From: an uncultured Bacilli bacterium
GTDB lineage: Bacteria; Bacillota_I; Bacilli_A; RF39; UBA660
Direction: 5' to 3'
Assembly (NCBI GenBank): GCA_934098375.1
Contig: CAKOOC010000003.1
Location: forward strand, 6,736-70,735
Length of the DNA stretch: 64,000 nucleotides
Shown: positions 11,574 to 43,281 of the stretch, piece after piece
Layout of the letters: the number at the start of each line of letters is the position of its first letter
How positions within the stretch are numbered: the first letter of the stretch is position 1
Translations under genes and position numbers: made by a program
The notes under the pieces: generated by a model
Seen by the model: the letters and a program-made list of their open reading frames with translations, nothing else
Told to the model about the DNA's origin: nothing
Databases searched by the model: none

Positions 11574-11604
11574 AAATAAAAAAAGAGATAAGACCTTTAT
11601 CTCT
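11574..11604 (-). terminator. Strong rho-independent terminator closing the 31.6-kb cluster
   Basis: On the minus strand: AGAGATAA-AGGTC-TTATCTCT followed by TTTTTT. It overlaps the stop codon of the 198-aa gene. Confidence 0.7.
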
Positions 11605-12199
11605 ATTCTACACCTGCAATTACAATATGTGCAGCAAACTTAGCCTCTTGATTACTATTTTGTTCTACACCAGTATCAAGGAAATAAATACGTAACGTAT
11701 AATTGTGAGTACTTTTATTTGCATTTTGAAATAATGGTGTTACAGTCCCTTTAAATTCAACTGTACTTGCTCCAGTTGGAATATTTCCTTTTACACTACC
11801 TAATACTACACTGGTTGTATCGCTATCTTCTTTATGACCAATTAACTCATAACTTAAAGCATTATTTTCAAAAGTGTTATTATCAACAACCATTGATATT
11901 TTATACTTCATTTTTAAATCAGTAGTATTAGTTCCATTTAAAGCAAAAGTCTTTGTAACCCATGCATCACTAGCAGAATTACTGCTTGCTGTACCTCTTG
12001 GATATATTTTCTTATCAAGCACTATATTACCACTATTATTTTGATAAGTTAGTTCCATTTTACCAGCTTCCATTGAAATTGTTGATACACTCTCTGAACC
12101 CTTTATATTTGCACTAAAATATGAATATGATATACCTAAAGTTGCTACAACAAGTATTGCTACTAAACTAATACTTAAAACAGTTTTATTTGTTTTCAT
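11603..12199 (-). CDS. TasA/camelysin-like secreted protein with a SipW-type signal peptide
   Basis: N-terminus MKTNKTVLSISLVAILVVATLGISYSYFSA, which compares with the xxYAYFSD class of signal peptide. The following AGKMEL resembles the AGTLDL motif of TasA/CalY-family proteins. Confidence 0.5.
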   Translation of the reverse strand: MKTNKTVLSISLVAILVVATLGISYSYFSANIKGSESVSTISMEAGKMELTYQNNSGNIVLDKKIYPRGTASSNSASDAWVTKTFALNGTNTTDLKMKYKISMVVDNNTFENNALSYELIGHKEDSDTTSVVLGSVKGNIPTGASTVEFKGTVTPLFQNANKSTHNYTLRIYFLDTGVEQNSNQEAKFAAHIVIAGVE

Positions 12200-12256
12200 A
12201 AATAACCTACTCTCTATTTCTATAAATATTTTACAATAACCATTACTTTATTTCAA

Positions 12257-14716
12257 CTATGAATTATCATCATCATTAAAGAAATCATCATAATACTGAT
12301 CATCTGTAACATCGCCAACGACAACACTATCTTTATCAACATTTATAGTTGGCTCTTCTTTATCATTACCAGATTTATCATTTTTGACTAAATCACTAAA
12401 GTTAAAGGCTGAAGTCATATCTAATTTATCATAATCCTCATTATTATCCTTAGAAACATCCAAAGTTTCCACTTTATTGCTACCATTTTTGGCTTTTTCT
12501 TCTTCTTCTAATTTTGCTATTTGAGCATCTATTCTTTTCACTAAATTATCAATATCAAATTTAGGAGTATTATTTACTTCTACTTTATCATCATCTAAAA
12601 CATCAACATCATTATCAAAATCATTAAAATCATTAAGGAATTTACCTCCTCGATTTGTTGATTCCTCTTTTTTATCGTTTAAATCATTAAACTCAAATGA
12701 ACCTTGTTTATTTGAACCTTTATCATTGCTATAAAATGGAGAAAACTGATTTTGATTAAAATCACTACTTGTATTAATATCATCATCATTAGTATTTACT
12801 GGTTTACTTACCTTCTCATTAGTTCCACTAAAAGGATTCAAGAAATTAACATCTGATTTAAAAGTATCAGCACTGGAAGATGAAGCTCCTGTTAAATTAT
12901 TAATTACATCGCTATTAGTTGTTTCTTTTCCTTCATCACTAATTAAATTATTACTTGGAGCATTATTTTTATTATTATTATCTAAAGCCTCAAATAATTT
13001 ATTTCTTTTTTGCACTTTAACAAATTCTTTAATATCAAATAGTTCTACTTTACGTCTTTCACGTTCCACTAATTTACCATTACCAAACTCATGACCCCAG
13101 TCAATTTCAAAACTAGGTGTCATTTTAGTTCTAAATGGATTTAGCCTACTTCTTAAAATAATAACTTCAAACATTTGCAATTTTTGTAAGTCTGATACCG
13201 TAATAAGTGGCGTTGATGCTGTTTTATCTTTTTCTTTTGATTTAACCTCACCACATAATTTACTTATTTCTTCTAAAGCAGCTAGTTCAGTTGTTATTAA
13301 GTAAATAATATTACCACAGTTACTTCTAATTGTTTCAGCTTGTTCCTTACCATAAACATCGTTAAGCTGAGCAAAGTTTTGAATAATAAAAGTAAATCTT
13401 ATTGCTCTAGAACGAGCCGCTGTTACCATGGTTGTAACATCTTTAAGTGGCGGCATATTAGCAAACTCATCTAAAATAAAATTTGTTTTAAAAGGAAGTT
13501 TACCTTTTGGATATGTTTGAGCTACATCAATAAGTGTTTCATATAACTGCTTTAAGAAAATAGTCGCCAGTGCATGATATGTAGTTTTTTCATCATGAAT
13601 AATCATAAACACCGCTGTCTTTTGCGTCCCTATCTCTCTCATATTAAAATCACTATAAGAAAGCATCTCTGATAACTCTTCCTTAGTAGCAAATAATCTT
13701 ATCTTTTGTCTAAATACTGATAAGATACTTCCCTTTGTTTCATTTGGAGCATTTATTGTATTTGATGCAAATACATAAGTATTTGAATCTTCACCTTTTA
13801 AAGTAAAATACTCTTTCGTATAATTACTAGTTGCAAAATTTTCTTCTCCAACCGTCGACATATAATTTATTGAATTTAAATTAATTTGATCTTCTTTAGC
13901 ATCTTGAAATAAACCAAGTGCAAGTCCTGAAAAGAAGTCAGAAGCTGATTTTTCCCAGAATGGGTCATTTTTATTATTTGGATCATACAAAATATTATGT
14001 GCAACGTCATCTAAAAGTTCAACTGCTTTATCTGTATTACCCTCTTTATATAATTGATAAGGAAGTGTAAGAGGATTCCAAGCATTTCCTAAATTAGGAT
14101 TACGGAAATTTAAAACAATAATTTTATATCCTTTACTTCTTAAAAATTCTGAGTGATCACGATAAAGTTCACCCTTTGGATCGGTTACAATAATACTTTC
14201 ACCATGTCTAGCAAGAGTTTGAATTTGTGCATTAACTACACAAGAACTTTTACCTGAACCAGTCGCACCAATAACTAAACTATGATACTCTCCATTATCA
14301 ACCCAAATGTTTTTACCATCATTAATTAAAGGCATTCCACCAGCTTCACTAGTTTGCTCTTTAATTATAACTTTTTCTACGTCTTTATCATTTTTTATTT
14401 CATTAGGTTTAGCCCATCTACTATAACCTTTTTCTTCCTTCTCTTTAAATGAAAATCCAATTCCTTTCGAACCTTTATCTCTATCAAAAATATAAGATGA
14501 CACTGATAAAAATATAGAAATTAAAACCGCAAAAAACACTACTAATGTAGGAAGTATATAAGGACTTACAAAACCTTTAAAAAAGTTAAGTCCAAAAAAT
14601 TCTGATGTATTTAATAAAGATGTAACATTTAATACTGCTAATGATGATAAAATAAGTAAAAATACACAGAATATAATAAATATTACTAAGTCTTTTGGTT
14701 TTACTCTAAATTTCAT
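12257..14716 (-). CDS. virD4: VirD4/TraG-family type IV coupling protein with a roughly 260-aa acidic low-complexity C-terminal tail
   Basis: Two N-terminal TM helices. Walker A is VIGATGSGKSS and Walker B is TNFILDEFANMPP. Also RSRAIRFTFIIQNFAQL and YGKEQAETIRSNCGN. RBS GAGGAGAAG. Confidence 0.85.
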   Translation of the reverse strand: MKFRVKPKDLVIFIIFCVFLLILSSLAVLNVTSLLNTSEFFGLNFFKGFVSPYILPTLVVFFAVLISIFLSVSSYIFDRDKGSKGIGFSFKEKEEKGYSRWAKPNEIKNDKDVEKVIIKEQTSEAGGMPLINDGKNIWVDNGEYHSLVIGATGSGKSSCVVNAQIQTLARHGESIIVTDPKGELYRDHSEFLRSKGYKIIVLNFRNPNLGNAWNPLTLPYQLYKEGNTDKAVELLDDVAHNILYDPNNKNDPFWEKSASDFFSGLALGLFQDAKEDQINLNSINYMSTVGEENFATSNYTKEYFTLKGEDSNTYVFASNTINAPNETKGSILSVFRQKIRLFATKEELSEMLSYSDFNMREIGTQKTAVFMIIHDEKTTYHALATIFLKQLYETLIDVAQTYPKGKLPFKTNFILDEFANMPPLKDVTTMVTAARSRAIRFTFIIQNFAQLNDVYGKEQAETIRSNCGNIIYLITTELAALEEISKLCGEVKSKEKDKTASTPLITVSDLQKLQMFEVIILRSRLNPFRTKMTPSFEIDWGHEFGNGKLVERERRKVELFDIKEFVKVQKRNKLFEALDNNNKNNAPSNNLISDEGKETTNSDVINNLTGASSSSADTFKSDVNFLNPFSGTNEKVSKPVNTNDDDINTSSDFNQNQFSPFYSNDKGSNKQGSFEFNDLNDKKEESTNRGGKFLNDFNDFDNDVDVLDDDKVEVNNTPKFDIDNLVKRIDAQIAKLEEEEKAKNGSNKVETLDVSKDNNEDYDKLDMTSAFNFSDLVKNDKSGNDKEEPTINVDKDSVVVGDVTDDQYYDDFFNDDDNS

Positions 14717-14771
14717 AGTATCTTCTCCTCGTCATTTTTTATTATATAATAATATTCTTATTTTTTCTATA

Positions 14772-15491
14772 TTAATTATTAGAAAATTTCACTTTATAAT
14801 AGGTATAAAAACCAAAAATAAATATTGCCACTAAAAGAGTCCCAATTAAGAAAATTGTTAATATATTACTTTCTTTTTCATCTAGTATAGTATTATTAGA
14901 AACAACCGATTTATCTATTTGAATAGCTATTTCTTTAGTCTTATAATTATTCTTATTAATAAACCAAGTATAAGTATTTTCTTTTATTTCATCTGCATTA
15001 TTACTTACAACCTTATAATTAGTAATTATATTAATTACCATATTATCTAAATATGGATAATTATCAAATAATGTACATCCTTTATTAGTATTAGAATTAA
15101 TAACTATTTTATTATTATTTACTTCTATACTTTTGAAACTATATTCTAATAATAATGGTGAGTTTTTATAATCATAAAAAGCAAACGAATTATTTAATTT
15201 AAAACCATATTTCCCATTTTTATCAATTAGTGATTTATCATAATAAGTATAACCCTCTATTTTTTTATTTACTTCAGGATATCCTGGCGTATTTATGTCA
15301 CTTGCAACATTTTGATTATAATACACATTTATCAGTTTTTCATATGTCATCCCATCACTATATGTTTCACTTTTAGCATTTTCTATAATTAATTCATCGC
15401 TTATAGTGTTATTTTCAATTGTTATATTGTAAGTAGCACTACAGCCGGTTAATAAAAATATTAAAGTTAGTAACACGCCTATTTTTCTCAT
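14772..15491 (-). CDS. Lipoprotein with an additional C-terminal TM helix, unknown function
   Basis: Lipobox LLTGC after MRKIGVLLTLIF. C-terminal helix ILTIFLIGTLLVAIFIFGFY. The ATG at 15491 with RBS GGAGAA is preferred over 15518. Confidence 0.55.
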   Translation of the reverse strand: MRKIGVLLTLIFLLTGCSATYNITIENNTISDELIIENAKSETYSDGMTYEKLINVYYNQNVASDINTPGYPEVNKKIEGYTYYDKSLIDKNGKYGFKLNNSFAFYDYKNSPLLLEYSFKSIEVNNNKIVINSNTNKGCTLFDNYPYLDNMVINIITNYKVVSNNADEIKENTYTWFINKNNYKTKEIAIQIDKSVVSNNTILDEKESNILTIFLIGTLLVAIFIFGFYTYYKVKFSNN

Positions 15492-15511
15492 TTTATTCTT
15501 TCTCCATTTAT

Positions 15512-16645
15512 TTAACAATTAGTTGCAAAGTAATTACTCATACTTTTTATTTGTAATCCCGCACTATTTATTCTTGCTTGATCATATGTTCCAAATATGA
15601 CGCCAACATTATTACCAGCTGATTCTATTGTTAATAATGTGCCTCCATTATTTTGTAAAACTAAAACAATATGATTTACACTTACTAAAATATCTCCAGC
15701 TCCAGCCTCAGCAAATGATATTGGTGAGCTAACATCCATAAAACCATTGGTAATCATGCTAACACTTTTACCTAACACCATTGTTGCCGCCCATGAAACA
15801 AAACCCGAACAGTCATATCCTACATGCGAATAACAATTAGTATCACTACATGACGTACTTGTTGGAGCTCCAATGGTCTTATCAACTCCCATATAGAAAA
15901 TCCCTGAATGACCACCGCCCCAATAATAAGGCACTCTATATCCATAATTTCCTAATTCTTTTGCTAACGTACTTGCAACATTTGCCATAGAAGTTTTAGA
16001 GCAACCATTACTGCTCGCTGCCGCCATTACTGTTTCATTAAGCTTATTGTAATTATCCATTCCAATCGCATCAACTATTGAAACAGTAAGTGGCATTAAG
16101 CCATCAGTACCTATAACTACACTGCCAACATCAATATTACTGCTATCGCTCTTACTTGGAGCTTGTTCTTTATAATTATTCACTAAATCTAAATCTGCTC
16201 CATTATTTGAAGTAAATAAAGTCAAAAGTATTATGAAAAGTAAAAATACACCGCCACCAATGCCACATAAAATTAACTTTGTCTTTAATGAAAAAACATT
16301 TAATTTTATATTACCTTTTTTTCCAAATAATTTTTTTAAAACATCGCCTTTTGAATTACTATTATTTTTAAAAAAATTATTTTTGTTATTTGGCTTTTTA
16401 TCATGATTATCTAATTTATTATCTTTTTGCTGCAATCCCGTATTCTTATCTTTTTCCAATAAATCATCATTTAAACCAGAATCAATGCTATTATCTACAT
16501 TTTCATTTTCATCATTTGCTATCAAACTAGGATTATAATAATTTCTTTGCCACATATTATTTTGCTTACTTTTTAAATCCGTCGCTAAATGAGCATTATT
16601 AAAAGAGGTAATATTCATTTTACCAAATCCATTTTTCAAAAACAT
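15512..16645 (-). CDS. Membrane-anchored NlpC/P60-family cell-wall hydrolase
   Basis: Catalytic Cys context GYDCSGFVSWAA, downstream GAGDILV and NHIVLVL (His). A single TM helix follows a low-complexity N-terminus. Confidence 0.75.
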   Translation of the reverse strand: MFLKNGFGKMNITSFNNAHLATDLKSKQNNMWQRNYYNPSLIANDENENVDNSIDSGLNDDLLEKDKNTGLQQKDNKLDNHDKKPNNKNNFFKNNSNSKGDVLKKLFGKKGNIKLNVFSLKTKLILCGIGGGVFLLFIILLTLFTSNNGADLDLVNNYKEQAPSKSDSSNIDVGSVVIGTDGLMPLTVSIVDAIGMDNYNKLNETVMAAASSNGCSKTSMANVASTLAKELGNYGYRVPYYWGGGHSGIFYMGVDKTIGAPTSTSCSDTNCYSHVGYDCSGFVSWAATMVLGKSVSMITNGFMDVSSPISFAEAGAGDILVSVNHIVLVLQNNGGTLLTIESAGNNVGVIFGTYDQARINSAGLQIKSMSNYFATNC

Positions 16646-16658
16646 TACCTCTCTTTCT

Positions 16659-17138
16659 TTAATTTATTATAACAGAATAATCCATTAAACTGTTTTCTAT
16701 AAACTTAAATTTATTATCAGAACTATCTATAACATAATAAGTATTTTTATTATTATAAATATCATACGTATATTTAGTTACTTCGGCTCTTTCAAGCTTT
16801 AATGATTTAATACTTTTTATATATTTTTTAAAATTATCTATATTTTCAAAATTGGTATTTTTATAATCTTCATCAAGTAATTCATATGCTTTCTCGGGAT
16901 AATATAACATGAAATTTACATACTCTGCTAAATACTTTTTAGCAACTTGCTCTGTATTTACATAAATAGGAATAACTTCATTAATTTTATAATCTTTTAT
17001 TACAGTACTTGAATCGTCATAAAAATAATAGTCTTCCTGCTTATCACTCTTTTTTATAATAAAAATGATAACTAATGATATTAGTATTAAAAATCCACAT
17101 ATAATAATTACTTTTTTACTATCATTAATATTAGTCAT
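16659..17138 (-). CDS. Small N-terminally anchored protein; possible VirB8/TcpC-like (NTF2-like) T4SS component
   Basis: Start MTNINDSKK at 17138 gives an 8-nt ATGACTAA overlap with the upstream gene. One TM helix is followed by about 120 aa of alpha+beta pattern. It is in tandem with a similar ORF. Confidence 0.3.
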   Translation of the reverse strand: MTNINDSKKVIIICGFLILISLVIIFIIKKSDKQEDYYFYDDSSTVIKDYKINEVIPIYVNTEQVAKKYLAEYVNFMLYYPEKAYELLDEDYKNTNFENIDNFKKYIKSIKSLKLERAEVTKYTYDIYNNKNTYYVIDSSDNKFKFIENSLMDYSVIIN

Positions 17139-17625
17139 TTGTATCACCTTTAAATATTTTTCCATCATAAGGAGTAATATCAAAAATATTCTTTTCACTT
17201 ATATTAATTATTACATAATAATTATCCATAATATTTAAACTATCAATAGTTTCTTCCATTAAGTAACCATATACATAATATTTAGTATTATCTTTATAAA
17301 TTTTTTTGGCTTGAAATGTTGTTTTTCCATTTAGTTTAGGAATATAATTATATACATTTTCTTTATTAACCCCATGATCATTAATATATTCATCATTTAG
17401 TAAAGTCAATATGTTGTCAGTCTCTTTCTTATATATTACATTAATAAATTTATTTACGCAATTTTCAATTGTAAAGAAATTAGAAGGATTATTGACAACA
17501 ACATTTTTATTACTAGTATCATTATCTAATTTTGTCGTTTTATTAATTACTAAAATTAAAACAATCGCTAAAACACTTATAATACCAATATAAATATAAT
17601 TCTTATTTTCTATTATTTTTTCCAT
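17131..17625 (-). CDS. Small N-terminally anchored protein; possible VirB8/TcpC-like (NTF2-like) T4SS component
   Basis: TM helix YIYIGIISVLAIVLILVI, then FFTIENCVNKFINVIY...FQAKKIYKDNTKYYVYGYLMEE, a pattern reminiscent of NTF2-like folds. Confidence 0.3.
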   Translation of the reverse strand: MEKIIENKNYIYIGIISVLAIVLILVINKTTKLDNDTSNKNVVVNNPSNFFTIENCVNKFINVIYKKETDNILTLLNDEYINDHGVNKENVYNYIPKLNGKTTFQAKKIYKDNTKYYVYGYLMEETIDSLNIMDNYYVIINISEKNIFDITPYDGKIFKGDTND

Positions 17626-17637
17626 CCTTAAGCCCTC

Positions 17638-19812: not shown

Positions 19813-19834
19813 AAACTACCACCTCTATAAATAA

Positions 19835-21631: not shown

Positions 21632-22181
21632 TAGTCATCACCGTCCCATATTCATTTTTTGCTCCCCCATTTAAGAAGTTCTGCAATAAAAACTTCAAAT
21701 CTTCATCACTAGTCTGTCTTGATATCATCCCAATTGATGCTAAATTACTAATTAAAGTTTGAATTCTTTTTTGAACAACCTCTAATTTTTTATCTCTAAA
21801 TAGAATAAAATATTCCGTATCAACAACGTTAATAGCGCTACTTTGAAACATTTCTGCTTTAGACATATCCTGACCTATAATTTTTCTAATTGTCTGTGAT
21901 GGTGCATTATCAAATTGAAGTTGTAAATTGGAAATATATAAGTTTATATCAACTGGTCTATCAGCAACTATTAACCAAAATTCGTAATTAATAGTATTAT
22001 AAAAGTTTCTAAAATTAAATATAATATTATTTTGCGTCTGATAATCTAAAATAAAGATATTCTTAGGCTCAATCTTAATTCCTGTAACATAATAATTATT
22101 ATCAAGAATTATCATTCCATTTTGTATAGTTTTTACTGGTATCCAATCTTCAGTATATTTACTTTGATTGATCTTTGCCAT
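21624..22181 (-). CDS. VirB4 N-terminal domain encoded as a separate 185-aa ORF
   Basis: EDWIPVKTIQNGMIILDNNYYVTGIKIEPKNIFILD resembles the N-terminus of Firmicutes VirB4/TcpF/Orf16-type ATPases. Combined, 185+598 aa approximates a full-length VirB4. Confidence 0.6.
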   Translation of the reverse strand: MAKINQSKYTEDWIPVKTIQNGMIILDNNYYVTGIKIEPKNIFILDYQTQNNIIFNFRNFYNTINYEFWLIVADRPVDINLYISNLQLQFDNAPSQTIRKIIGQDMSKAEMFQSSAINVVDTEYFILFRDKKLEVVQKRIQTLISNLASIGMISRQTSDEDLKFLLQNFLNGGAKNEYGTVMTNV

Positions 22182-22482
22182 AATTAATGCACCATCCTTT
22201 CCAATAGTATGTTCTTCTATTTGTATAATATCTATAAATATTTGTAAGCATTGTTACAACATTATGCTGATTAGGTATCGGTAAAACCAAAAAGGTACTT
22301 ATAAGAGCCGGTAACAAGACAATTAACGCACCCTTTAAAGTTTCAACGGATATTGAAAACATAAATATTAGTGTTATCAATAAACCAGTTCCAAATATTA
22401 CTAAATCTAACTTTGTAAAAAAACCTAATATCAGCATTGACTTTTTGGAATTTGCTGGTATCAAAAAATTATTATTACCCAC
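22159..22482 (-). CDS. VirB3/PrgI-like small membrane protein
   Basis: 107 aa with two TM helices, located directly upstream of and overlapping VirB4. GTG start with RBS AGGAGA. Confidence 0.55.
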   Translation of the reverse strand: MGNNNFLIPANSKKSMLILGFFTKLDLVIFGTGLLITLIFMFSISVETLKGALIVLLPALISTFLVLPIPNQHNVVTMLTNIYRYYTNRRTYYWKGWCINYGKDQSK

Positions 22483-22497
22483 TTTTCATCTTCTCCT

Positions 22498-25784: not shown

Positions 25785-25798
25785 ACTTTTACTCCCTT

Positions 25799-31237: not shown

Positions 31238-31249
31238 ATAAACCTTCCT

Positions 31250-31278: not shown

Positions 31279-31328
31279 CCTTTATAGATCCAAGACCTAT
31301 ATTAATAATATCATAAAATTATTAATAT

Positions 31329-31988: not shown

Positions 31989-31993
31989 CTTAA

Positions 31994-34963: not shown

Positions 34964-35017
34964 AAACTCTCCTTCTATCTTCATAATAATTTTAATATAA
35001 AATCATTTAAATAGCAA

Positions 35018-35572
35018 TTATATTTTGAACGATTTAAACTTATTTCTTTTAACTAAATAGTTTATTCCTGTTTCCGCTAAAGATAGTATTCCATTTACTA
35101 CAAAAAAGAATGCTAAGAGCAAAAGTTGTACACTTTGATCATAATATAAATTAATACTTGTAAGTAGTCCTAGTAGTATAAATAAAGAAAAAGTCATTAA
35201 ATTTACATAAAACATTCCATCATCTCTATCATGATAATAATCTAGTTTTATAAGTTTTATAATAGCCATAATTCCTACCCAAGAAAATAATGTAATGCCT
35301 AGTACTTTAGGTGTATCATAAGTGCCAAATTTATAACCACTTACAGCAACCAAAATACACGCAATTGATGTATATAAACTTTCTCTATCATTTTTTTCCC
35401 TTGTTAAAATAAATTCAATCATTTTTATTCCTGCATAAACACTAAATAAAACATATAAAAGTAAATTAGGTTTCATATTTTCTAAAAATGTCGCGCTAAA
35501 CAAAAATATTCCTAAAAGCAATATTAATCCTGAACATATAATATTAACTTTCATTTTATCCTTCTTTTTCAT
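35018..35572 (-). CDS. Polytopic membrane protein (about 6 TM helices), unknown function
   Basis: 184 aa, hydrophobic throughout. It lies directly downstream of essC. Confidence 0.4.
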   Translation of the reverse strand: MKKKDKMKVNIICSGLILLLGIFLFSATFLENMKPNLLLYVLFSVYAGIKMIEFILTREKNDRESLYTSIACILVAVSGYKFGTYDTPKVLGITLFSWVGIMAIIKLIKLDYYHDRDDGMFYVNLMTFSLFILLGLLTSINLYYDQSVQLLLLAFFFVVNGILSLAETGINYLVKRNKFKSFKI

Positions 35573-35640
35573 CCCTATTCTCCTTTAGTATAATATTAAA
35601 ACAATAATTATTATCTGTCAATTTAAACTCTTAGTTAGTC

Positions 35641-35672
35641 CAAAATAAAAACTCTCTAATCTAGAAAGTTTT
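35641..35672 (-). terminator. Imperfect rho-independent terminator after essC
   Basis: On the minus strand: AAAACTTTCT...AGAGAGTTTT (one mismatch) followed by TATTTT. Confidence 0.4.
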
Positions 35673-38600
35673 TACAATGTTTCTGTAACTTCATTTATAA
35701 TTTCAAAAGATTCTACAAATTTAACATAAGATGGTTTTCCTGCTTTTACAACAAAACAGAAATTACTTGGAATATCCTCTCTCATTTCTGGTGTCTTTTG
35801 AGCAACTTTAATACTATATTGATCATTTATGCCATTTCCAATCCAAATACCAAAGTTTCCATTTGCATTTGATCTATACCAAGCTTCCATTTCTACTTTT
35901 CTTATTTTATCAACACTATCAACAATAATGAATTTAAGAATTTCGATATCTTTAGCTTTATCCATCATTTTATCAAACAGTTTTTTATTCTCATCACTAA
36001 TTTTATTCTTAAACGATTCTATGCCAATTATCATACAATATATTTTAGATGTTCCATTAAATATCTCCTTATCATAATTACTATTTACATATTTATCATA
36101 ATTATTAGTTACAAAATTATTTATTTTAGTAAATACTTTATCAAAATCTTTATCTGTATATTGATAATTTCCTTTTTCTAATTCAATTTCTCCCGCATTA
36201 ATAACCATAATTTCTGCTATTTTCTGATAAATGATTTGATTAATAAGAGGATTTAAGAATTTACTTACCGAAAGTATATCTAATGTTGAAATAATATTTA
36301 TTAAATATCTATTAAAATTAAAAGTACAAGCGTTTAAATTATTTTTATTTACCCCAATAACTACTTCATTGCTTGATAAATAATCCTTTATTTCTTTAAA
36401 AGTAACTATATTTGGAAGAACAGGTATTTTATTAGCTTTAACTCTATAAAGAGTATTAGACATTCTAATTTTGCTTTTAACTGTTTCCGATATTTTATCT
36501 TTTTCACTTACCATTGCGGTTTGAAATTCATAAACATCATCTATTTTAACAATACCTCTACCAAATAATTTAGCTGGATAATTTTTATTAACAGAGCCAA
36601 GTATACTTATATAATCATCTTCATTATTTTGATTTAGTACATATACAAGGGAAAAACTTTGTCTTAGTTTATATCTTACCCCATTTGTAGAAGTTACTGT
36701 AAGTACAAAATATATACCATACTTAATACTCTCTCTAGCTAAAACGCTTAAATTTTCCGTTAAATTTTCATATACTTCATTAAATGATTCATAATTATTA
36801 ATTATTATTACAATATTTGGTACTTTTTTATTACTATTTTTAATAAAACTTTCATAATTACCATTAAAATCAGCAAATAAAGTCTTTCTCTCATTAATTG
36901 TGGCCGATATCATTTTAAATAAATTATTTATTTTCTCATCTTCGCCACTTGTTAAAATATCCCCCACTAAATAAGAATTTCTAAACATATTTAAAGTACC
37001 AGATCCAAAATCTATTAAATAATAATTTAATTCTTCTGGCGTATAATTTAAGATTGATGAATAAATCATACTTGTAATAAAGTTTTCTTTACCACTTCCG
37101 GCCGCTCCATAAACTAAAGCATTTCCTTCTTTAGAAATTGGCATTGTTAATATTCTTTGTTCTTGTTTATTTGGTACATCATATTCACCAATTATTGGAT
37201 TAATATTAAATTTTTCTTTGAAGTAAGTAGTTTTATATTTTTCTTCTAAATTATCTATTGTAATAAAGGCCGGTATTTTTTCAAGCCATAATGGTTTTGT
37301 TATTATGTTTTGTTCTTTTGCTAAACCATCTAAATATTTAACTATATTAATAAGTTCTTCTCCATTAGATACTGCTACTTCCTCTTTTTTAATTTTGGTA
37401 TTAATTTTCTTTGTTATATAACCAATATTATTAATAAAATCTATAGAGGTATTTAGTTCTTTACTAACCTTTTCATGCGGAATATACTTTCCACCCGCAT
37501 ATGCAGCTTGGCCTAAAATGAATACCTCATCATAACCAACTTGAAAGTAAAATCTACCCGTTTGTTTTAAATATGCGGCATCGGCTTTTTTAATTACTTC
37601 ATTTGAATCTGAAGTATCTTGTACTCTTAAACAAACTCTAAATCTGGTATTACTCCAAATTTGTGGATCAACAACTCCGCTTGGTTTTTGAGTTGCCAAA
37701 ATTAAATGAACACCTAAACTACGACCAATACGAGCGGTACTTATCAGTTCATCCATAAATTCTGGCTGCTGATTTTTTAGTTCTGCAAATTCATCACATA
37801 TAATAAATAAATGAGATATTGGTTCTGTTATTTCTTTTTCTCTAAACATTTTTTGATATTTATATATATCAATTGTACTTTCTCCAGATATCTCTCTTGC
37901 CTTATTAAATAGTGCCTGTCTTCTTTTAAGTTCAGCTGAAATAGATGCTAAACTTCTTTTAATTTCATTTGCATCTAAATTAGTAATTGTTCCTACTAAA
38001 TGTGGCAATTTTAGTCCGGTTAATTTATTTTCAAAAGCCCCCGCTAAACCACCACCTTTATAATCAATTAATATAAATTGTACTTCATAAGGATGATAAT
38101 TTATGGCCATTGATAATATATACGTAATAATAAACTCTGATTTACCACTACCAGTCATACCTGCAATAAGTCCATGAGGTCCATGATATTTTTCATGTAA
38201 ATCAATCGCGATTAACTCTTCATTTTTTCCTACCCCCACTGGAGCACTTAAATTAAGAATTGGATTGTTTCTTTGCCAGCGCAGAGTTGAATTAAGCTGC
38301 TCGACTTTACCAACATCATACATTTCTAAAAATCCAATTTTTGCTGGAAGTTTACCTTCTGTATCATTTTTAATATCAATTGGTATATTTGCAAGAACTT
38401 TCACACATGCTTCATAATCAATTATTGAATCTAAATCTGGCACAAATTTAATGCATTCATTCGGATTTAAACTATTTCTAATTTCACATTCATGATATTT
38501 ATTACTTAATAAACTCATATCAATAAAAGATGTACATTGATCTGGTAAATTAGTCATTTTTTGCTCTAAAATAAGTAAACTAAAACCACAATACTCTTTA

Positions 38601-40318
38601 TTATTTAAGATATTTTTTACAATATCATACTCTCTTACTTTTTTAAGTGAATCAGTTATTATTAAATATGATTGATTAGCTTTTTCATTTTCACTAACAT
38701 CTTGATTATCACTTTTTCTGTTTTCAAATACTTTATTTAAATAATAACAAACTTCTTTATATTCATCATTATTTGTTGCAAAAAACCTCATCGTTTTATC
38801 ATCAGTAATTAAATGTGGTGCTAGTTTTAAAAAACTCCATTCATGTTCTCTTTCTTCATCTGTAAGAATTACTATTTTTAAATCGTCATAACTATGAAAA
38901 GCTAAAATTTGTATTATTAGTCTTCTAATTAAATTATGTAAGTTAGAAAGACCATAAACACCACTAATATAATTATTTTTAAAAGAATAAGGTATTGCTA
39001 CATTTTCAAGTATCTTAGGAGCACTTCCTAGTTCACTTAGCATTTTCTTTAAATTATCTTCTTCTAATGAAAAGCCTTCTTCCGGATAATTTATATTAAT
39101 TTTCATTGGATAATTTCCTGTTCCCACATTAACTGTTAAAAAGTCTAAATCATCTTTACGTTTTTGCCATAAAGCCGGACTTTTATGCAAGATAATATCT
39201 GCTGCTTTCGTTGTATCTTGATAATACATATTAAGAGCTTCTTCCTGGCTATGTTTATTAATTTCTATTTCTTCTTTTTTAGCATCAATATATTTGCGAT
39301 ATTTTTTTTGCCTTTTTCTTTCTTTATTTGCTCTTTCAAATTTCTCATACCATCTTGTAAATAATGGCCATACAAAAATACTTGCAAACATCGCTCCGCA
39401 TATTATTAATGAAGGAGTAGCTTGTTTTAAAGTTACTGTTCCATTCATTACATTACTTAAAGATTGATATCCCATAACCATTGATGTCATTGACATAGTT
39501 GCCATTGGCCCAATAGTTAATAAAAATGGGCTTTCTTTTTCTTCTTGTTTTGCTGGTGGTGCATCTATTTTTAAATTAAGTGTATTAATTACTGGTACTA
39601 TTCTCGGTTTTTTATAAAAATAATCATTATCGTTATATATAGGATACTCTATTTCAACTGGCATCTCCCTAAAATCAGAATACATTGACCCAATTGTACC
39701 TAATGGAATCATCGTTGTATTTATTGAATTAATAGTTCCATTATTTACGTATAAAACATAACCATTATTAGTAGTCATCGAAATCATCATTCTAAGTCCC
39801 ACAATAAATATTACATCCCCAATTTTTATTTCGGCCTTTTTAGTAATTCTAAAGTTATTTATATAAATCCCATTTTTAGTATCATAAACATAAATATATA
39901 ATTTATTATTTTCTTTCTTTATTACACATGACTCTTTATCTAAATTACTATAATTAATCATAGCGTTAGATTTACTACCTATTAATAATCCTTTATCAAT
40001 ATATTCATTTATTTCATAGCAGTTATAATTTTCAATAACCGGTGAGCAATATAATATGAAAATACTTTTATCTATATCATTTTTTACATAATAAAACTTT
40101 CCAATTTCTAAATAAGTAAAAGGCTCCATTACATTATTTTTAATATAATATACTTCTTTATTACTTATTAATTTCCATCTATCATTTTCTGCTTCAATTG
40201 ATATTAAATTACTTCTATTGCCATTTAAATCAATTCCATCTACCCAGTATACACCCTGAGCTTCAGCAGGTAAAATAATATTTTTAATCGAATAAAGTTT
40301 AATTACGGATATTCTCAT
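35672..40318 (-). CDS. essC: Type VII secretion FtsK/SpoIIIE-family ATPase EssC (YukB-like)
   Basis: 1548 aa. The N-terminal FHA-like tandem region is (GVYWVDGIDL...RWKL; IKIGDVIFIVGLRMM). Two TM helices lie near aa 270-320. ATPase domain 1 has GMTGSGKSE and IICDEFAEL. Domain 2 has a deviant GAAGSGKEN. Domain 3 has no recognisable P-loop. Confidence 0.85.
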   Translation of the reverse strand: MRISVIKLYSIKNIILPAEAQGVYWVDGIDLNGNRSNLISIEAENDRWKLISNKEVYYIKNNVMEPFTYLEIGKFYYVKNDIDKSIFILYCSPVIENYNCYEINEYIDKGLLIGSKSNAMINYSNLDKESCVIKKENNKLYIYVYDTKNGIYINNFRITKKAEIKIGDVIFIVGLRMMISMTTNNGYVLYVNNGTINSINTTMIPLGTIGSMYSDFREMPVEIEYPIYNDNDYFYKKPRIVPVINTLNLKIDAPPAKQEEKESPFLLTIGPMATMSMTSMVMGYQSLSNVMNGTVTLKQATPSLIICGAMFASIFVWPLFTRWYEKFERANKERKRQKKYRKYIDAKKEEIEINKHSQEEALNMYYQDTTKAADIILHKSPALWQKRKDDLDFLTVNVGTGNYPMKININYPEEGFSLEEDNLKKMLSELGSAPKILENVAIPYSFKNNYISGVYGLSNLHNLIRRLIIQILAFHSYDDLKIVILTDEEREHEWSFLKLAPHLITDDKTMRFFATNNDEYKEVCYYLNKVFENRKSDNQDVSENEKANQSYLIITDSLKKVREYDIVKNILNNKEYCGFSLLILEQKMTNLPDQCTSFIDMSLLSNKYHECEIRNSLNPNECIKFVPDLDSIIDYEACVKVLANIPIDIKNDTEGKLPAKIGFLEMYDVGKVEQLNSTLRWQRNNPILNLSAPVGVGKNEELIAIDLHEKYHGPHGLIAGMTGSGKSEFIITYILSMAINYHPYEVQFILIDYKGGGLAGAFENKLTGLKLPHLVGTITNLDANEIKRSLASISAELKRRQALFNKAREISGESTIDIYKYQKMFREKEITEPISHLFIICDEFAELKNQQPEFMDELISTARIGRSLGVHLILATQKPSGVVDPQIWSNTRFRVCLRVQDTSDSNEVIKKADAAYLKQTGRFYFQVGYDEVFILGQAAYAGGKYIPHEKVSKELNTSIDFINNIGYITKKINTKIKKEEVAVSNGEELINIVKYLDGLAKEQNIITKPLWLEKIPAFITIDNLEEKYKTTYFKEKFNINPIIGEYDVPNKQEQRILTMPISKEGNALVYGAAGSGKENFITSMIYSSILNYTPEELNYYLIDFGSGTLNMFRNSYLVGDILTSGEDEKINNLFKMISATINERKTLFADFNGNYESFIKNSNKKVPNIVIIINNYESFNEVYENLTENLSVLARESIKYGIYFVLTVTSTNGVRYKLRQSFSLVYVLNQNNEDDYISILGSVNKNYPAKLFGRGIVKIDDVYEFQTAMVSEKDKISETVKSKIRMSNTLYRVKANKIPVLPNIVTFKEIKDYLSSNEVVIGVNKNNLNACTFNFNRYLINIISTLDILSVSKFLNPLINQIIYQKIAEIMVINAGEIELEKGNYQYTDKDFDKVFTKINNFVTNNYDKYVNSNYDKEIFNGTSKIYCMIIGIESFKNKISDENKKLFDKMMDKAKDIEILKFIIVDSVDKIRKVEMEAWYRSNANGNFGIWIGNGINDQYSIKVAQKTPEMREDIPSNFCFVVKAGKPSYVKFVESFEIINEVTETL

Positions 40319-40397: not shown

Positions 40398-40438
40398 TAA
40401 AAAAACTATTATAATTTTATTTCATTTATAATAGTTTT
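40398..40438 (-). terminator. Hairpin terminator or attenuator between the lysozyme-domain gene and essC
   Basis: 13-bp arms AAAACTATTATAA / TTATAATAGTTTT overlap the stop codon. A short T tract follows. Confidence 0.45.
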
Positions 40439-41831
40439 AAATATTAATTGTATTTCTATCAACAAGATTGCTAGCAGCTCGCGCATTTTCACTATTTGCT
40501 CTAGTTAAACCTATTTTATTATTCTCACTACTGTCAACCGATGGAGCTTCATAAAAAATAGTTATATTCTGTGCGATATTTTTATAGTCACGGTCTACTT
40601 TACCTGTAAGCTGATCATGTAATTTTCCATAATCTGCTCCATTAGCCATATTATTATAATCATTTTTTAATTCGTAGTTCATAAATTCTAATTGTCCATC
40701 CATTGAATTAACATCATAGCCATTATCTCTGCAAAAATTTTCTAAAGATGCTTTTCTTTCTTTTGTAAGCCACTGACATATTCCAAAGGCACCGGAAGAA
40801 TTGGTTACTGTTGGATCCATTTGGCTATTTTCATTTAGAAGATTAGCAATCATAGCTTTTGCCCCTTCATCAGTATATCCAAAATCATTTCTCATCTTAT
40901 TATAAGCATAAAGAATTCTTTGATCTGTCTGCTTACTAAATAAATTACTTGGATTAGCTACAACTGTATCGGCAAGATTAATACGCTTACTTTCTATTTT
41001 ACTATCAGCATTTGAAGCAGCAACTGTCTCATCACGTTTAATAGTGTCTTCCTTAGTATCATTTTCTAAATTTTTAGGCTTTATTTCACTATCTAATAGG
41101 CCCCGATTAAGTATTTGCAAAAATAATCCACCATTAGTTGCCACATTTCCTGTACTTACCATATCATAAACAAGTTGGGCTACTTTTTCTCCATACTGAC
41201 TATTAATTTCCTGATATCTTTCTTGTGGATTACCAGAATTAAGAACCGATTGAGCTAAGTCTGTCATATTATTAGCAAGCTCTTTTAAAGTAGAAAAATT
41301 GGCATCCTTATATTTAAAATCTATTGTTATATTATTATCATCACTATTAAGTACATCTGCAATATATTTAGGTACTACTCCATTATTATTAATAGTTTTT
41401 TGTACTGCATCTGCTACCTTTTCGCCATACAAATATGTTAACTTTGCCATTCTTTCATCGCCATTACCATATGGATTACTTGCTGAATTTATTTCCGAAA
41501 CAATCGCTAATATTGTATCAACTGTCAAAAGTTCTTTATTTACTGAAACTGTTGAAAATCCTTTTATAGCGTTAACATCAACCGGTTTATCTTCTATATT
41601 TAAAGCTGTCCTAACAGCTTTCTCTGTTTCCTTTAAAGTTTTCATATCATTTGAAGCTTTAATAAGATAATCTTTCATTTCTGTAAGAAGTGTCGTATAA
41701 GTAAAATCATGTAAGCTACTTGCTTTGCTAATTAATTGGTCTATATGCTTAATTGCCAAAGGAATATTATCATTACATTGGTTAATATAATTAGCTGCTA
41801 AATTGAACAATTCTGGATTATACTCAAACAT
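40437..41831 (-). CDS. T7SS-cluster protein with a helical N-terminus, an internal duplicated module and a C-terminal phage-tail-lysozyme-like peptidoglycan hydrolase domain
   Basis: No signal peptide. The C-terminal part is GAKAMIANLLNENS...GAFGICQWLTKERKASLENFC...MDGQLEFMNYEL. The duplicated segment is ...ERMAKLTYLYGEKVADAV... / ...ERYQEINSQYGEKVAQLV... Confidence 0.5.
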   Translation of the reverse strand: MFEYNPELFNLAANYINQCNDNIPLAIKHIDQLISKASSLHDFTYTTLLTEMKDYLIKASNDMKTLKETEKAVRTALNIEDKPVDVNAIKGFSTVSVNKELLTVDTILAIVSEINSASNPYGNGDERMAKLTYLYGEKVADAVQKTINNNGVVPKYIADVLNSDDNNITIDFKYKDANFSTLKELANNMTDLAQSVLNSGNPQERYQEINSQYGEKVAQLVYDMVSTGNVATNGGLFLQILNRGLLDSEIKPKNLENDTKEDTIKRDETVAASNADSKIESKRINLADTVVANPSNLFSKQTDQRILYAYNKMRNDFGYTDEGAKAMIANLLNENSQMDPTVTNSSGAFGICQWLTKERKASLENFCRDNGYDVNSMDGQLEFMNYELKNDYNNMANGADYGKLHDQLTGKVDRDYKNIAQNITIFYEAPSVDSSENNKIGLTRANSENARAASNLVDRNTINI

Positions 41832-41842: not shown

Positions 41843-42235
41843 CTAACTTCTTAAAGAATATAATTCGGTTTGAATGTTTCTAATATTCAAGTCACAATTA
41901 TTAATTTGCTTTTGAAATTCATTTATTTTTCTTAAACAAAAACTATTTAAACTAGAAACACTATTTTTTGCTAATTCTAAATTTCTATAAATATTGGGAA
42001 TTGACTCTCCGCCCAATATTTCTGTGCCACTTATAAATCCACCATTTCTACTGCTTTCTCCGGCAGCAAAAATATTATCTAACGCTGTTTCCACTGTTTT
42101 AGAATAATTACCTAACTGAGTATTAAATTCTTCATACCCTTTTTTCCAATTCTCGTAAATACTTTTAGTTCTATAATTTCCACGTAATTGATCAGTTAAT
42201 TGATATATTCTTCTTTCTCTTTCAGATGGTGTCAT
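41843..42235 (-). CDS. Small helical T7SS-associated protein (130 aa), family uncertain
   Basis: All-helical and coiled-coil-like, with ENWKKGYEEF. No signal peptide. It is tightly packed between T7SS-type genes. Confidence 0.3.
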   Translation of the reverse strand: MTPSERERRIYQLTDQLRGNYRTKSIYENWKKGYEEFNTQLGNYSKTVETALDNIFAAGESSRNGGFISGTEILGGESIPNIYRNLELAKNSVSSLNSFCLRKINEFQKQINNCDLNIRNIQTELYSLRS

Positions 42236-42246: not shown

Positions 42247-42858
42247 TTACAAATTATTATTAATATTTGTTGTAGCAGTTGATAAATTGCTTATAGCTTC
42301 ATTAAAATAGGTTGTATATATAGAAGTATTATCAGCAAAACTTTCAAATAAGTTTACAGCACGTTCTCTATTAGCGCCCGCTAACCAATTGGAAAGTAGT
42401 TCATCTTTCTTAGCAGTAAAATCATTTAAAAATTTGTTATAACTATCAAAAATAGTTTCTAAAGTGGCTAAATCATTAAGAATACTTGGATCAACATCAT
42501 ATCTTACTGTTGCTTCTGCTGGAGTAATAGTTGTAAATTCCATTGAAGATGTTAAACTTTCACCAATCATTCCGCCACCACCATTGGCATTTCTTACTTT
42601 TTGTACACTGATCATACTTTCAGCCGCATTATAAGTAACTAATACTGCATTTTGAATTAAAGCTCCTAACCCATTATATACGTTAATTAAGTTATTAATA
42701 TGAGCAGTTGCATCTGAACTTACCCAGTGTGCTTTTAAATTAGCAATATTTGAAGAAAGATTATTTAATAAATCATCTCCTGTACTTAAAGAAAAACTAT
42801 TTATTTCCTTACATTGTTCATATCCTAAATCTAGATTATTTATAACTATATCATTCAC
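42247..42858 (-). CDS. WXG100/LXG-superfamily-like helical protein (203 aa) with two W-x-[SG]-type hairpin motifs
   Basis: LKAHWVSSDATAHINNL in the first half and LLSNWLAGANRERAV in the second. There is a Gly-rich break NANGGGGMIG, no signal peptide, and RBS GGAGGAG. Confidence 0.4.
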   Translation of the reverse strand: MNDIVINNLDLGYEQCKEINSFSLSTGDDLLNNLSSNIANLKAHWVSSDATAHINNLINVYNGLGALIQNAVLVTYNAAESMISVQKVRNANGGGGMIGESLTSSMEFTTITPAEATVRYDVDPSILNDLATLETIFDSYNKFLNDFTAKKDELLSNWLAGANRERAVNLFESFADNTSIYTTYFNEAISNLSTATTNINNNL

Positions 42859-42969
42859 AAAAATCTCCTCCTTCTATTTATTATGAATAATAATCTCGGT
42901 AACCATACCCTAATACCATAATATCATTAATAAAATAATAATAAAGTAGCTGTGTAAATTACTTTACAC

Positions 42970-43227
42970 TTAAATTACTACTATTTTACTGCCATTTTTT
43001 ATTCCCGAATCTTTTACTAAGACGTTATTATCAAATTCTTTACCATTATCTCTATCAATAATTCTAATATCATTAATACTTTTATTAAAAGAATTATTAG
43101 ACTCTTCCCTAATAGCGCTTAAAATATGTGTTTTTATTGTTCCTACTTTTTTATTATTTGGAATGTATACATCAAATTCTAATTCTATAATTGGCACTAT
43201 TACTGTGATTAGGTATTTATTTAGCAT
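42970..43227 (-). CDS. esaB: YukD/EsaB-like ubiquitin-fold T7SS protein
   Basis: 85 aa. The pattern ITVIVPIIELEFDVYIPNNKKVGTIK...VLVKDSGIKNGSKIVVI is typical of YukD-family beta-grasp proteins. Confidence 0.6.
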   Translation of the reverse strand: MLNKYLITVIVPIIELEFDVYIPNNKKVGTIKTHILSAIREESNNSFNKSINDIRIIDRDNGKEFDNNVLVKDSGIKNGSKIVVI

Positions 43228-43251
43228 GAAATCATCCCCGATTCTAAAACG

Positions 43252-43281
43252 ATTATATCACGATAAACGCTATTTAGTAAA
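43252..43281 (-). promoter_or_regulatory. Candidate sigma-A promoter for the cluster
   Basis: On the minus strand: TTTACT, an 18-nt spacer, then TGATATAAT (extended -10). It sits between the RNase J terminator and the esaB-like start. Confidence 0.35.

Follow-up and report, generated by a model that had tools for sequence, protein, structure and literature searches.

In a 64-kb stretch of DNA from an uncultured Bacilli bacterium (contig CAKOOC010000003.1; hereafter the window, meaning the whole stretch analysed), we examined a cluster in which genes of type VII secretion system (T7SS), adhesin, tight adherence (Tad) pilus and type IV secretion system (T4SS) type follow one another on a single strand. 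We consider this cluster to be, on balance, probably a host-owned, vertically inherited envelope or contact apparatus of small-genome gut Bacilli, domesticated and not a mobile element. The reading draws on gene content, conservation, synteny, purifying selection and mobility genes that were searched for and not found, all of them direct observations.

The region from 11603 to 43227 is filled by 27 open reading frames (ORFs), all co-directional on the minus strand, with gaps that do not exceed about 120 nt or with small overlaps; they are named o01 to o27 in the order of transcription (43227 down to 11603). The ORF listing and profile searches bear out an earlier note, made from the letters alone, that had described 27 co-directional ORFs joining genes of these four types. 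The flanking genes are also as stated there, with RNase J on one side and rhodanese, DedA and RmuC on the other. GC content is 0.24-0.34 across the cluster, equal to the flanks, with a local bump of 0.32-0.34 at 23-25 kb.

All 27 proteins were compared, as sequences and with iterated hidden Markov models (HMMs), against about 90 related loci with flanks of up to 10 kb; these loci or contigs carry L-numbers such as L007 and L010. Rows for o04 were excluded from the locus HMM comparison and from the estimates of nonsynonymous to synonymous divergence (dN/dS), its profile having mixed with that of o21 through a common lysozyme-type domain. A one-genome-per-species scan used the TadZ-like protein o13, and 80 loci of the scan were kept. 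This protein has 584 homologues, the few named ones being "MAG: Bacilli bacterium" (MAG, metagenome-assembled genome), and 193 species-level genomes hold a relative of it; exact copies occur on human-gut metagenome contigs with identical gene order. Nearly all of the kept loci come from uncultured MAGs of gut origin whose titles read Bacilli, Tenericutes, Mollicutes, Erysipelotrichaceae or "Mycoplasma sp. CAG:472", and we infer that the relatives belong to RF39 or a neighbouring order. The clade includes one complete genome, of 1.49 Mb. Several loci (L014-L017, L029, L030 and others) bear the titles Muribaculaceae, Phocaeicola vulgatus or Clostridium sp.; judged by gene content and low GC, their contigs were probably mis-binned or mislabelled.

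In many species, RNase J and/or DnaB-DnaI genes are found upstream of the T4SS, and VirD4 is followed by rhodanese and RmuC both in the window and in loci with a TadZ of only 40% identity (for the downstream flank, Pfam was used with L077, and similarity to RmuC with L049, L056 and L077). Divergence of the cluster tracks that of its housekeeping neighbours, with values of 81-85% for RNase J versus 85-87% for VirB4, and of 67-70% for RmuC versus 51-62% for VirD4 and 78-81% for TadA. Between the window and L007, dN/dS is 0.03 for VirB4, 0.08 for VirB3, 0.06 for TadZ and 0.10 for EssC; the ATPases are under strong purifying selection, and the ORFs are intact in all strains. The locus is also mosaic on comparison of 16659-30078 with L002, L004 and L007, as blocks have been swapped for divergent alleles in strains whose adjoining genes are identical (dS, the synonymous divergence, about 0). 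In L002 the swapped block runs from the 3' part of o16 to o20 (dS 0.4-0.8), and in L004 the blocks are o10-o12 and o16-o23 (dS 0.3-1.2). It is the surface-exposed parts that vary, and this allele swapping hints at determinants of specificity.

Searches of the cluster, the profiled flanks and the neighbour tables of about 90 loci detected no relaxase, integrase, transposase, replication or partition domains, with the limit that no relaxase-specific (MOBscan/CONJScan) profiles were used; window ORFs at 46030-46380, 57288-58034, 58896-59705 and 62335-63964 lie outside the domain profiling. The same absence of relaxase, integrase, replication and partition genes had been noted before, and it holds for the cluster and for the flanking ORFs profiled. 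No tRNA, att-like flanking direct repeats or GC island was found when these were searched for. There is no DNA match to plasmids, and the best plasmid proteins are about 30% and at most 32% identical: EssC matches Bacillus mycoides plasmids, VirB4 matches pAW63-like plasmids of B. thuringiensis and VirD4 matches genes of the CD1115 family.

A deeply conserved partnership joins the Tad and T4SS genes, with adhesins and a minimal T7SS as further modules. In a deeper clade (clade-I), the order o11-o11-o12-o12-o13 stands directly after a Tad core, which is composed of a large protein, DUF5411, two RcpC/CpaB proteins, TadA and two membrane proteins, and is followed by T4SS genes or by M23, two VirB8 and VirD4 genes. 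Because these genes are contiguous in the deeper clade, o11-o13 are best read as Tad components and Tad plus T4SS as an old unit. Within the cluster of the earlier note, the T7SS junction is confined to the window strains, L007 and L010/L096. In L049, L068 and L077 (e.g. L077 5590-16314), the Tad core, pilins and TadZ, M23 hydrolase, fused VirB8 pair and VirD4 stand in a row with no VirB4 or VirB6 in between, so that any VirB4 must be elsewhere. A 378-aa gene after VirD4 in L077 was considered as a relaxase and rejected, being RmuC.

The T4SS module of the window comprises the following genes.

22914-25784, minus strand: o16, 956 aa, VirB6-like polytopic protein with a long strain-variable C-terminal region (NF045889)
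22498-22917, minus strand: o17, 139 aa, present in only some strains and relatives
22159-22482, minus strand: o18, VirB3-like (NF045975 positions 3-94)
21624-22181, minus strand: o19, VirB4 N-terminal domain (NF045975 positions 99-280)
19835-21631, minus strand: o20, VirB4 ATPase (NF045975 positions 297-891)
17638-19812, minus strand: o21, 724 aa, bifunctional peptidoglycan hydrolase with M23 and lysozyme domains (profiles)
17131-17625, minus strand: o22, bitopic NTF2-fold protein, VirB8-like (AlphaFold2, Foldseek)
16659-17198, minus strand: o23, bitopic NTF2-fold protein, VirB8-like
15512-16645, minus strand: o24, weak NlpC/P60 match (E=0.003)
14772-15518, minus strand: o25, lipoprotein with an LTGC lipobox
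12257-14716, minus strand: o26, VirD4 coupling protein with an Asp/Asn-rich C-terminal tail (PF02534, NF045973)
11603-12199, minus strand: o27, 198-aa secreted protein, no Pfam or NCBIfam match

Together, o18, o19 and o20 tile NF045975, the Mycoplasma integrative and conjugative element (ICE) model of VirB4. The VirB4 scores are 1e-103 for NF045975 and 2e-56 for NF045971, both below the equivalog cutoffs, and PF19044 (P-loop_TraG) and PF12846 (AAA_10) match above the gathering score. The three-way split of VirB3/VirB4 is kept in relatives (109/185/596 aa) and is therefore not a pseudogene. Members of the o18 family match TcpE/PrgI, which is VirB3-like. The coupling protein o26 matches Pfam T4SS-DNA_transf PF02534 at 4e-54 and NF045973 (CD1115 family) with 295 bits against a cutoff of 250, and VirD4 is 61-63% identical in distant relatives. 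Its last ~260 codons (12257-13040) encode a long acidic, low-complexity tail rich in Asp and Asn, past the conserved type IV coupling protein domains. The profile searches uphold the EssC, VirD4 and split VirB4 calls made earlier (TIGR03928, NF045973 and the NF045975 tiling), and Pfam matches do so for the M23 plus lysozyme protein, the lysozyme-domain protein and the cadherin-like surface proteins.

Other assignments in this module are less firm. The VirB6-like call for o16 has a match to NF045889 (Mbov_0396 TM, the Mycoplasma-ICE VirB6-like family) at 6e-9, which is below cutoff; this protein is 956, 799 or 728 aa long depending on the strain, with 39% identity between strains. The NlpC/P60 call stands as a weak one. 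For o22, the AlphaFold model has a transmembrane helix and an NTF2-like fold (predicted local distance difference test score, pLDDT, 83), and Foldseek returned NTF2 folds including pIP501 TraM (4ec6) at TM 0.55, all at E>0.01; the model is consistent with a VirB8-like protein and not specific for one. In L077 and L068, o22 and o23 are fused into one protein. The only resemblance found for o27 is to the N-terminal part of a DUF285 protein ('Mycoplasma protein of unknown function') of 595 aa in L031 (3140-4927), which lies upstream of the T4SS locus; o27 is not kept at the cluster end in relatives, it is doubtful that it belongs to the system, and its earlier description as TasA-like finds no support in Pfam or NCBIfam. 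Searched as single sequences, o01-o03, o06, o08, o10-o15, o17, o22, o23, o25 and o27 matched nothing in Pfam or NCBIfam, apart from a weak ESAT6_2 match for o02 and a weak MPN385 match for o14/o15. Family-level calls come from 108 orthologues scanned individually. It is at this level, and not in the window sequences alone, that the YukD, WXG, VirB2-like pilin and VirB3-like identifications find their matches.

Between the T7SS and the T4SS channel genes lie surface proteins, pilin-domain proteins and the TadZ-like gene.

30041-34984, minus strand: o07-o09, three Cys-rich surface proteins with signal peptide and C-terminal transmembrane anchor (PF12733, sequence)
31994-34984, minus strand: o07, cadherin-like repeats (PF12733)
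31329-31988, minus strand: o08, Cys-rich surface protein
30041-31237, minus strand: o09, cadherin-like repeats (PF12733)
29065-30078, minus strand: o10, 337 aa, secreted N-terminal domain, Gly/Asn linker and C-terminal VirB2-like T4SS-pilin domain
28265-28993, minus strand: o11 (28718-28993) and o12 (28265-28705), small pilin-like/TadE-like proteins with an N-terminal hydrophobic helix
27205-28251, minus strand: o13, 348 aa, TadZ-like, N-terminal alpha/beta and MinD/ParA-type domains (AlphaFold2, Foldseek, Tad context)
26779-27129, minus strand: o14, 116 aa, VirB2-like pilin (family T4SS_pilin; weak MPN385 match for the o14/o15 entry)
25799-26692, minus strand: o15, second pilin-domain fusion, paralogue of o10

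An o09-o08-o09 block upstream of the T4SS is kept in many relatives. The proteins o10 and o15 are paralogues, and T4SS_pilin is matched by 15 members of the o10/o14/o15 families among the orthologues scanned one by one; VirB2-like pilin-domain genes number three in the window and up to five in relatives (L081, L084). The small proteins o11 and o12, which had been called TadE/G-like, have a Tad context in relatives, where they come directly after TadA/TadB/TadC, and only weak Pilin_N (archaeal-type pilin N-terminus) matches in 4 family members. The Walker A motif of o13 is degenerate (HAGATT). Its AlphaFold model (pLDDT 81) matches MinD, ParA, FlhG and FleN in Foldseek, and its family profile has no sequence match to solved TadZ. 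For the TadZ-like and VirB8-like calls, the fold (and for TadZ the Tad context) is in agreement and a specific match is missing. Family profiles of o01, o02 and o13 gave no meaningful match when searched against PDB sequences.

Located 5-11 kb downstream of the cluster, the Tad motor genes fall outside the coordinates considered in the earlier note, which missed them.

140-6300: Tad pilus core, minus strand
5572-6300, minus strand: 242-aa secreted, anchored surface protein heading the Tad core
2696-5572, minus strand: 958-aa protein
2274-2681, minus strand: DUF5411 protein (4e-55)
1266-2087, minus strand: CpaB-like (TIGR03177 2e-7, below cutoff)
140-1243, minus strand: TadA ATPase (T2SSE 2e-29)
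beyond the left window edge (L091 11130-12826): TadB/TadC-like genes, 299- and 264-aa membrane proteins after TadA, no profile match

RcpC/CpaB matches occur in the Tad cores of relatives. The window's Tad core locus, with its continuation read on L091, contains neither pilin nor TadZ genes. The 242-aa protein at its head was considered as a prepilin peptidase and rejected, being a secreted, anchored surface protein.

The T7SS module occupies the promoter-proximal end of the cluster.

42970-43227, minus strand: o01, 85 aa, YukD/EsaB-like ubiquitin-like T7SS protein (family-level PF08817 YukD)
42247-42858, minus strand: o02, 203 aa, WXG100-like helical protein (weak ESAT6_2 match; family WXG100)
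41843-42235, minus strand: o03, 130 aa, small helical protein, WXG100/Lap-like partner, kept in T7-type loci
40437-41831, minus strand: o04, 464 aa, helical N-terminal region and C-terminal Phage_lysozyme2 muramidase (PF18013 1.5e-19)
35672-40318, minus strand: o05, EssC, FHA and FtsK/SpoIIIE ATPase domains (TIGR03928, Pfam)
35018-35572, minus strand: o06, 184-aa polytopic membrane protein, only in the clade with the fused arrangement, no profile match

The assignment of EssC is firm, with 970 bits against a TIGR03928 cutoff of 778, Pfam matches to FHA and two to FtsK_SpoIIIE, and ~30% identity to Bacillus EssC. The window copy of o01 has no Pfam match; PF08817 YukD is matched by 5/8 of the o01-family sequences scanned (best 8.6e-6), and o01 always adjoins EssC in relatives. 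The o02 family consensus HWVGxDA contains the W-x-G motif, the window copy reading HWVSSDA (W-V-S), and WXG100 is weakly matched by 6 o02/o03 family members on scanning orthologues one by one; o03 has no profile match of its own. Orthologues of o04 lie directly upstream of EssC in relatives, and from its sequence o04 is a candidate T7SS substrate; a direct similarity between o04 and o21 within the window was rejected on comparison of the two. No Pfam or NCBIfam match to EssA, EssB (pseudokinase) or EsaA was found in any cluster ORF or in the T7 loci of relatives, where canonical WXG100 genes are present. Because EssA, EssB and EsaA are absent, the T7SS here is minimal (YukD-like, WXG-like, EssC) and not a canonical T7SSb.

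The T7SS is fused upstream of the T4SS only in a narrow genus-level clade. The fused order (RNase J, o01-o04, EssC, o06, adhesins, pilins/TadZ, T4SS) is found in the window strains, in L007 and in L010/L096, which represent a second species with an EssC 72% identical; all EssC proteins of the fused clade are at least 72% identical. Many other species have the adhesin-pilin-T4SS block without an upstream T7SS, typically behind RNase J and/or DnaB-DnaI. An o13 paralogue stands beside YukD-like, WXG-like, muramidase-domain and EssC genes in 10 loci, and a T4SS locus was also seen in 7/10 genomes with such a TadZ-linked T7 locus. The opposite order, with the T7 locus after the T4SS, occurs on the L087/L089 contig and in RUG12877. 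In L087, a GGDEF (diguanylate cyclase) gene (6563-7192) directly precedes the T4SS-type locus. In a neighbour-joining tree, the o13 relatives adjacent to a Tad core form one clade and the T4-linked ones another, and the T7-linked copies are nested twice within the latter. The T7 module of the window lacks a TadZ of its own, whereas a TadZ paralogue accompanies the module in its closest non-fused relatives. From these loci, T7-T4 adjacency is recurrent (three linked arrangements) yet not obligatory, and coupling of the two may be entertained as a hypothesis.

Promoter- and terminator-like sites were examined along the cluster.

43252-43281, minus strand: promoter-like site TTTACT-18-TATAAT with extended -10 TG, 10/12, after a weak RNase J terminator hairpin
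35593-35621, minus strand: TTGACA-17-TAATAT, between EssC and o06
27156-27185, minus strand: perfect sigma-70 consensus TTGACA-18-TATAAT, 12/12, in the 75-nt o13/o14 gap, upstream of the small VirB2-like pilin gene
11574-11604, minus strand: weak terminator-like hairpin with an 8-bp AT-rich stem, 2 G-C pairs and T7, overlapping the o27 stop codon

The promoter-like site that had been placed at 43252-43281 does exist and is plausible as a promoter, with the caveat that such matches occur at chance frequency in AT-rich DNA (120 found versus 117 expected). The hairpin at 11574-11604 was described earlier as a strong terminator; it is a weak one by stem and G-C content, and a terminator scan of the window did not report it. 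Rfam searches found neither a c-di-GMP or other riboswitch nor any further RNA family in the window at the gathering score, and none in the cluster at E<=0.5.

As for the host, FtsW/RodA and EzrA genes occur near the cluster (window 8169-9218 and 55459-57177), as does SpoIVA (L091 17737-19215). Because these proteins are encoded there, the lineage would probably be a walled, spore-forming one; a thin-walled, partly sporulating picture has been published for these orders, and FtsW/RodA, EzrA and SpoIVA are consistent with it (PMC10868615). At L092 17531-18388, a Bro-N domain gene lies between M16 peptidase genes and spoIVA, and it is absent at the same place in L091.

In its gene content, the nearest functional analogue of the system appears to be the T4SS of Patescibacteria, and its nearest sequence families those of Mycoplasma ICEs and Clostridioides difficile CD1110/CD1115. 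The chromosomal T4SS of Patescibacteria is relaxase-less, has pilin arrays and is essential for epibiosis, e.g. in Southlakia epibionticum (PMC12102498; PMC12857230). Both systems belong to monoderms with small genomes and are vertically conserved across a lineage; both comprise a chromosomal MPF-FATA-like set (VirB1-type hydrolase, VirB4 and VirD4, with VirB3-, VirB6- and VirB8-like proteins) with no relaxase, several VirB2-like pilin genes and a type-IV-filament system alongside. The present cluster differs in belonging to another phylum, in having pilin domains partly fused to large secreted domains, and in its partner filament, which is Tad and genetically interwoven with the T4SS, unlike the type IVa pilus of Patescibacteria. 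Cadherin-like adhesins and a T7SS are also attached here, and the likeness is one of gene content.

Mycoplasma ICEs (Mbov_0395/0396/0397; ICEA/ICEB) supply the best profiles for VirB4 (1e-103) and for the VirB6-like protein; they likewise lack a classical relaxase, and a VirB3-like segment precedes VirB4 in them as it does here. All scores are nevertheless below equivalog cutoffs, VirB3/VirB4 here is spread over three ORFs, and the peptidoglycan hydrolases and VirB8-like proteins of the cluster are lacking in those elements. The present locus, unlike them, has neither a DDE transposase nor inverted repeats, and it occupies a fixed site in the chromosome. The mycobacterial conjugative plasmid pRAW, which combines a T4SS-like system with the ESX-P1 T7SS, is the only experimentally shown case of a T7-T4 co-requirement (PMC4173767), as the earlier note had said. 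It shares with the cluster the linkage of a T7SS to VirB4/VirD4-type genes in one replicon region. Unlike pRAW, a plasmid with a relaxase and a T7SSa including EccB/D/E and MycP, the present system is chromosomal, without a relaxase and with a minimal EssC-type T7SS; its T7-T4 linkage is not universal in the lineage.

Tad-linked T7SSs of Bacillota have been described as T7SSf, whose TsfV has a TadZ-like receiver domain, and as T7SSg and T7SSh, which have adjacent Tad loci, with no T4SS mentioned (PMC11217815). They share with the present module a minimal core of TsxA/TsxB/TsxC type (WXG100-like, YukD-like, EssC with FHA) without EssA, EssB and EsaA, and a genetic association with TadZ-like or Tad genes. 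In contrast to them, the cluster has no PPM phosphatase, TsfJ or AAA+ TsfV, its TadZ-like protein is of the MinD/ParA type, and its EssC is still of the T7SSb type by TIGR03928. Pairs of T4SS and type IV pilus are also on record, namely the genomic-island T4SS of PAPI-1/ICEclc type with type IVb pili and the thin pilus of IncI R64 (PMC12857230). In those pairs, as here, a VirB4/VirD4 machine is genetically paired with a type-IV filament thought to stabilise cell contact; they are mobile elements of diderms with relaxases, whereas the present locus is monoderm, chromosomal and equipped with a Tad-type filament. A literature search found no paper on this locus or on the T7SS, T4SS and Tad combination in Bacillota. 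The earlier statement that no equivalent is described was too strong given the published T7SS-Tad (PMC11217815) and T4SS (PMC12102498) cases. What appears to be new here is a domesticated Gram-positive T4SS interwoven with Tad and fused, in one lineage, to a minimal T7SS.

Under the explanation we favour, the system would have an old core in which a Tad-type pilus is combined with a conjugation-type T4SS of the Gram-positive (MPF-FATA-like) kind. In the present genome, the motor genes of the pilus (CpaB, TadA, TadB/C) may have been displaced downstream by ~5-11 kb, and the genes for pilin-like, TadE-like and TadZ-like Tad proteins would have remained inside the T4SS cluster. The minimal T7SS, an independent module elsewhere in the lineage, would have moved in this genus to a position directly upstream of the cluster, behind RNase J. 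Contact could be made or held by the cadherin-like adhesins, the Tad pilus and the VirB2-like pilin-domain proteins, and the peptidoglycan opened by two or three hydrolases, the M23/lysozyme and NlpC/P60 proteins among them. The channel would be formed by VirB6, VirB3, two VirB8 and VirB4, with VirD4 feeding it a macromolecular substrate, DNA or protein. We lean slightly towards DNA, handled by an unlinked or unconventional relaxase, because VirD4 is retained and the families are of ICE type. No relaxase is linked to the cluster, and other roles are open to systems of this kind, as the Patescibacteria case demonstrates. The T7SS may export WXG-like proteins and a muramidase at the same site, with the TadZ-type MinD/ParA positioning protein as a common organiser; such sharing is argued because the closest non-fused relatives carry a TadZ, the window T7 module has none and stands in one cluster with the T4-linked TadZ, and the linkage recurs. 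The substrate, the contact function and T7-T4 coupling are inferred.

Several observations weigh against this reading. Among the window ORFs profiled there was no match to Flp pilin or to Peptidase_A24 (the TadV/CpaA prepilin peptidase), and the TadB/TadC, VirB6 and VirB8 calls are weak. No substrate, relaxase or effector was identified, so that function would be assigned by analogy, and all relatives are MAGs, which leaves copy number and linkage incompletely known. At the module junctions, two promoter-like sites (35621-35593 and 27185-27156) point to separate transcription units. T7 and T4SS loci lie on different contigs in 5 genomes, and stand-alone T7 loci (L093-L095, EssC 44-54% identical) have canonical WXG100 genes without TadZ or T4SS; because of both, the T7SS can evidently work without an adjoining T4SS. 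These same junction sites, separate contigs and stand-alone loci of more distant relatives speak for a view in which a T7SS for competition or secretion, a Tad adhesin and a separate domesticated T4SS are independent neighbours brought together by neutral rearrangement. So do the housekeeping genes whiA and clpP, which alone separate the T4SS from the T7 locus in L087/L089, and the authors who described T7SSg/h likewise could not exclude coincidence for the T7-Tad co-location (PMC11217815). Against independence stand the three different linked arrangements, the recruitment beside EssC of TadZ paralogues derived from the T4-linked clade, the window T7 module that lacks the TadZ present in its closest non-fused relatives, and a T7SS without any known membrane partner of EssC; we give this view a substantial minority share of credence. 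Less probable is a further reading, that Tad, T4SS and T7SS form one co-localised, TadZ-organised apparatus serving host-encoded chromosomal exchange between cells or, as in Patescibacteria, an obligate interaction with partner bacteria. EssC would then sit on a T4SS/Tad scaffold, because it lacks membrane partners of its own, and the exchange might be a Firmicute counterpart of mycobacterial distributive transfer or of Mycoplasma chromosomal transfer.

An ICE inserted beside an unrelated T7SS, either active with an unrecognised relaxase or recombinase or decayed, is suggested by gene families that usually occur in ICEs of Firmicutes and Mycoplasma (CD1115 VirD4; CD1110 and Mbov_0397 VirB4; Mbov_0396), by the absence of a classical relaxase from Mycoplasma ICEs themselves (PMC12857230) and by several small ORFs (o17, o25, o27) without an assigned function. 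We think it very improbable, as the chromosomal neighbours are the same in species whose TadZ is only 40-50% identical, divergence matches that of housekeeping genes, and selection on intact ORFs is strongly purifying. No integrase, transposase, att repeats, tRNA, compositional shift or related plasmid was found, and the unassigned ORFs are all too small to look like a relaxase; with flanks conserved across species and no relaxase, the earlier note's reading of the locus as something other than a decayed ICE is sustained. Another proposal is a machine importing DNA or nutrients, in the manner of Helicobacter pylori ComB, archaeal Ced/Ted or the conduit proposed for Patescibacteria, in an auxotrophic and possibly partner-dependent cell, with pilus and T4SS serving uptake in place of export. 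Against it, the cluster has kept a complete VirD4 coupling protein that is highly conserved; ComB is not known to include a VirD4. A chromosomal, relaxase-less T4SS with pilins, the 1.49-Mb complete genome and the heavy allele swapping, which indicates frequent recombination in the locus, would fit import, for which Ced (PMC9905601) and Patescibacteria (PMC12102498) offer precedents. Since ComEC occurs in a relative, ordinary competence may exist; there is no evidence of an epibiotic lifestyle, and the retention of FtsW, EzrA and SpoIVA looks like that of a walled, spore-forming cell. We judge import unlikely on these grounds.

Gram-positive T4SSs are known almost entirely as components of DNA-moving mobile elements, and the single exception studied well, that of Patescibacteria, proved essential for an epibiotic way of life. 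If the domesticated contact apparatus we favour is correct, the locus points to a second, independent non-mobile Gram-positive T4SS after that of Patescibacteria, in an uncultured lineage widespread in human and animal guts whose members have small genomes and, if they are RF39-like, many auxotrophies. Compared with the Patescibacteria case, the additional features are the pilin-domain fusions, the interwoven Tad genes, the adhesins and the linked minimal T7SS. The cluster raises the questions of how a T7SS works without EssA, EssB and EsaA, what role a TadZ-like protein may have for machines other than Tad, and how these bacteria interact with other cells or exchange genes. Should the components prove to be one TadZ-organised apparatus, Bacillota would have in it their first domesticated T4SS and their first T7-T4 chimera.

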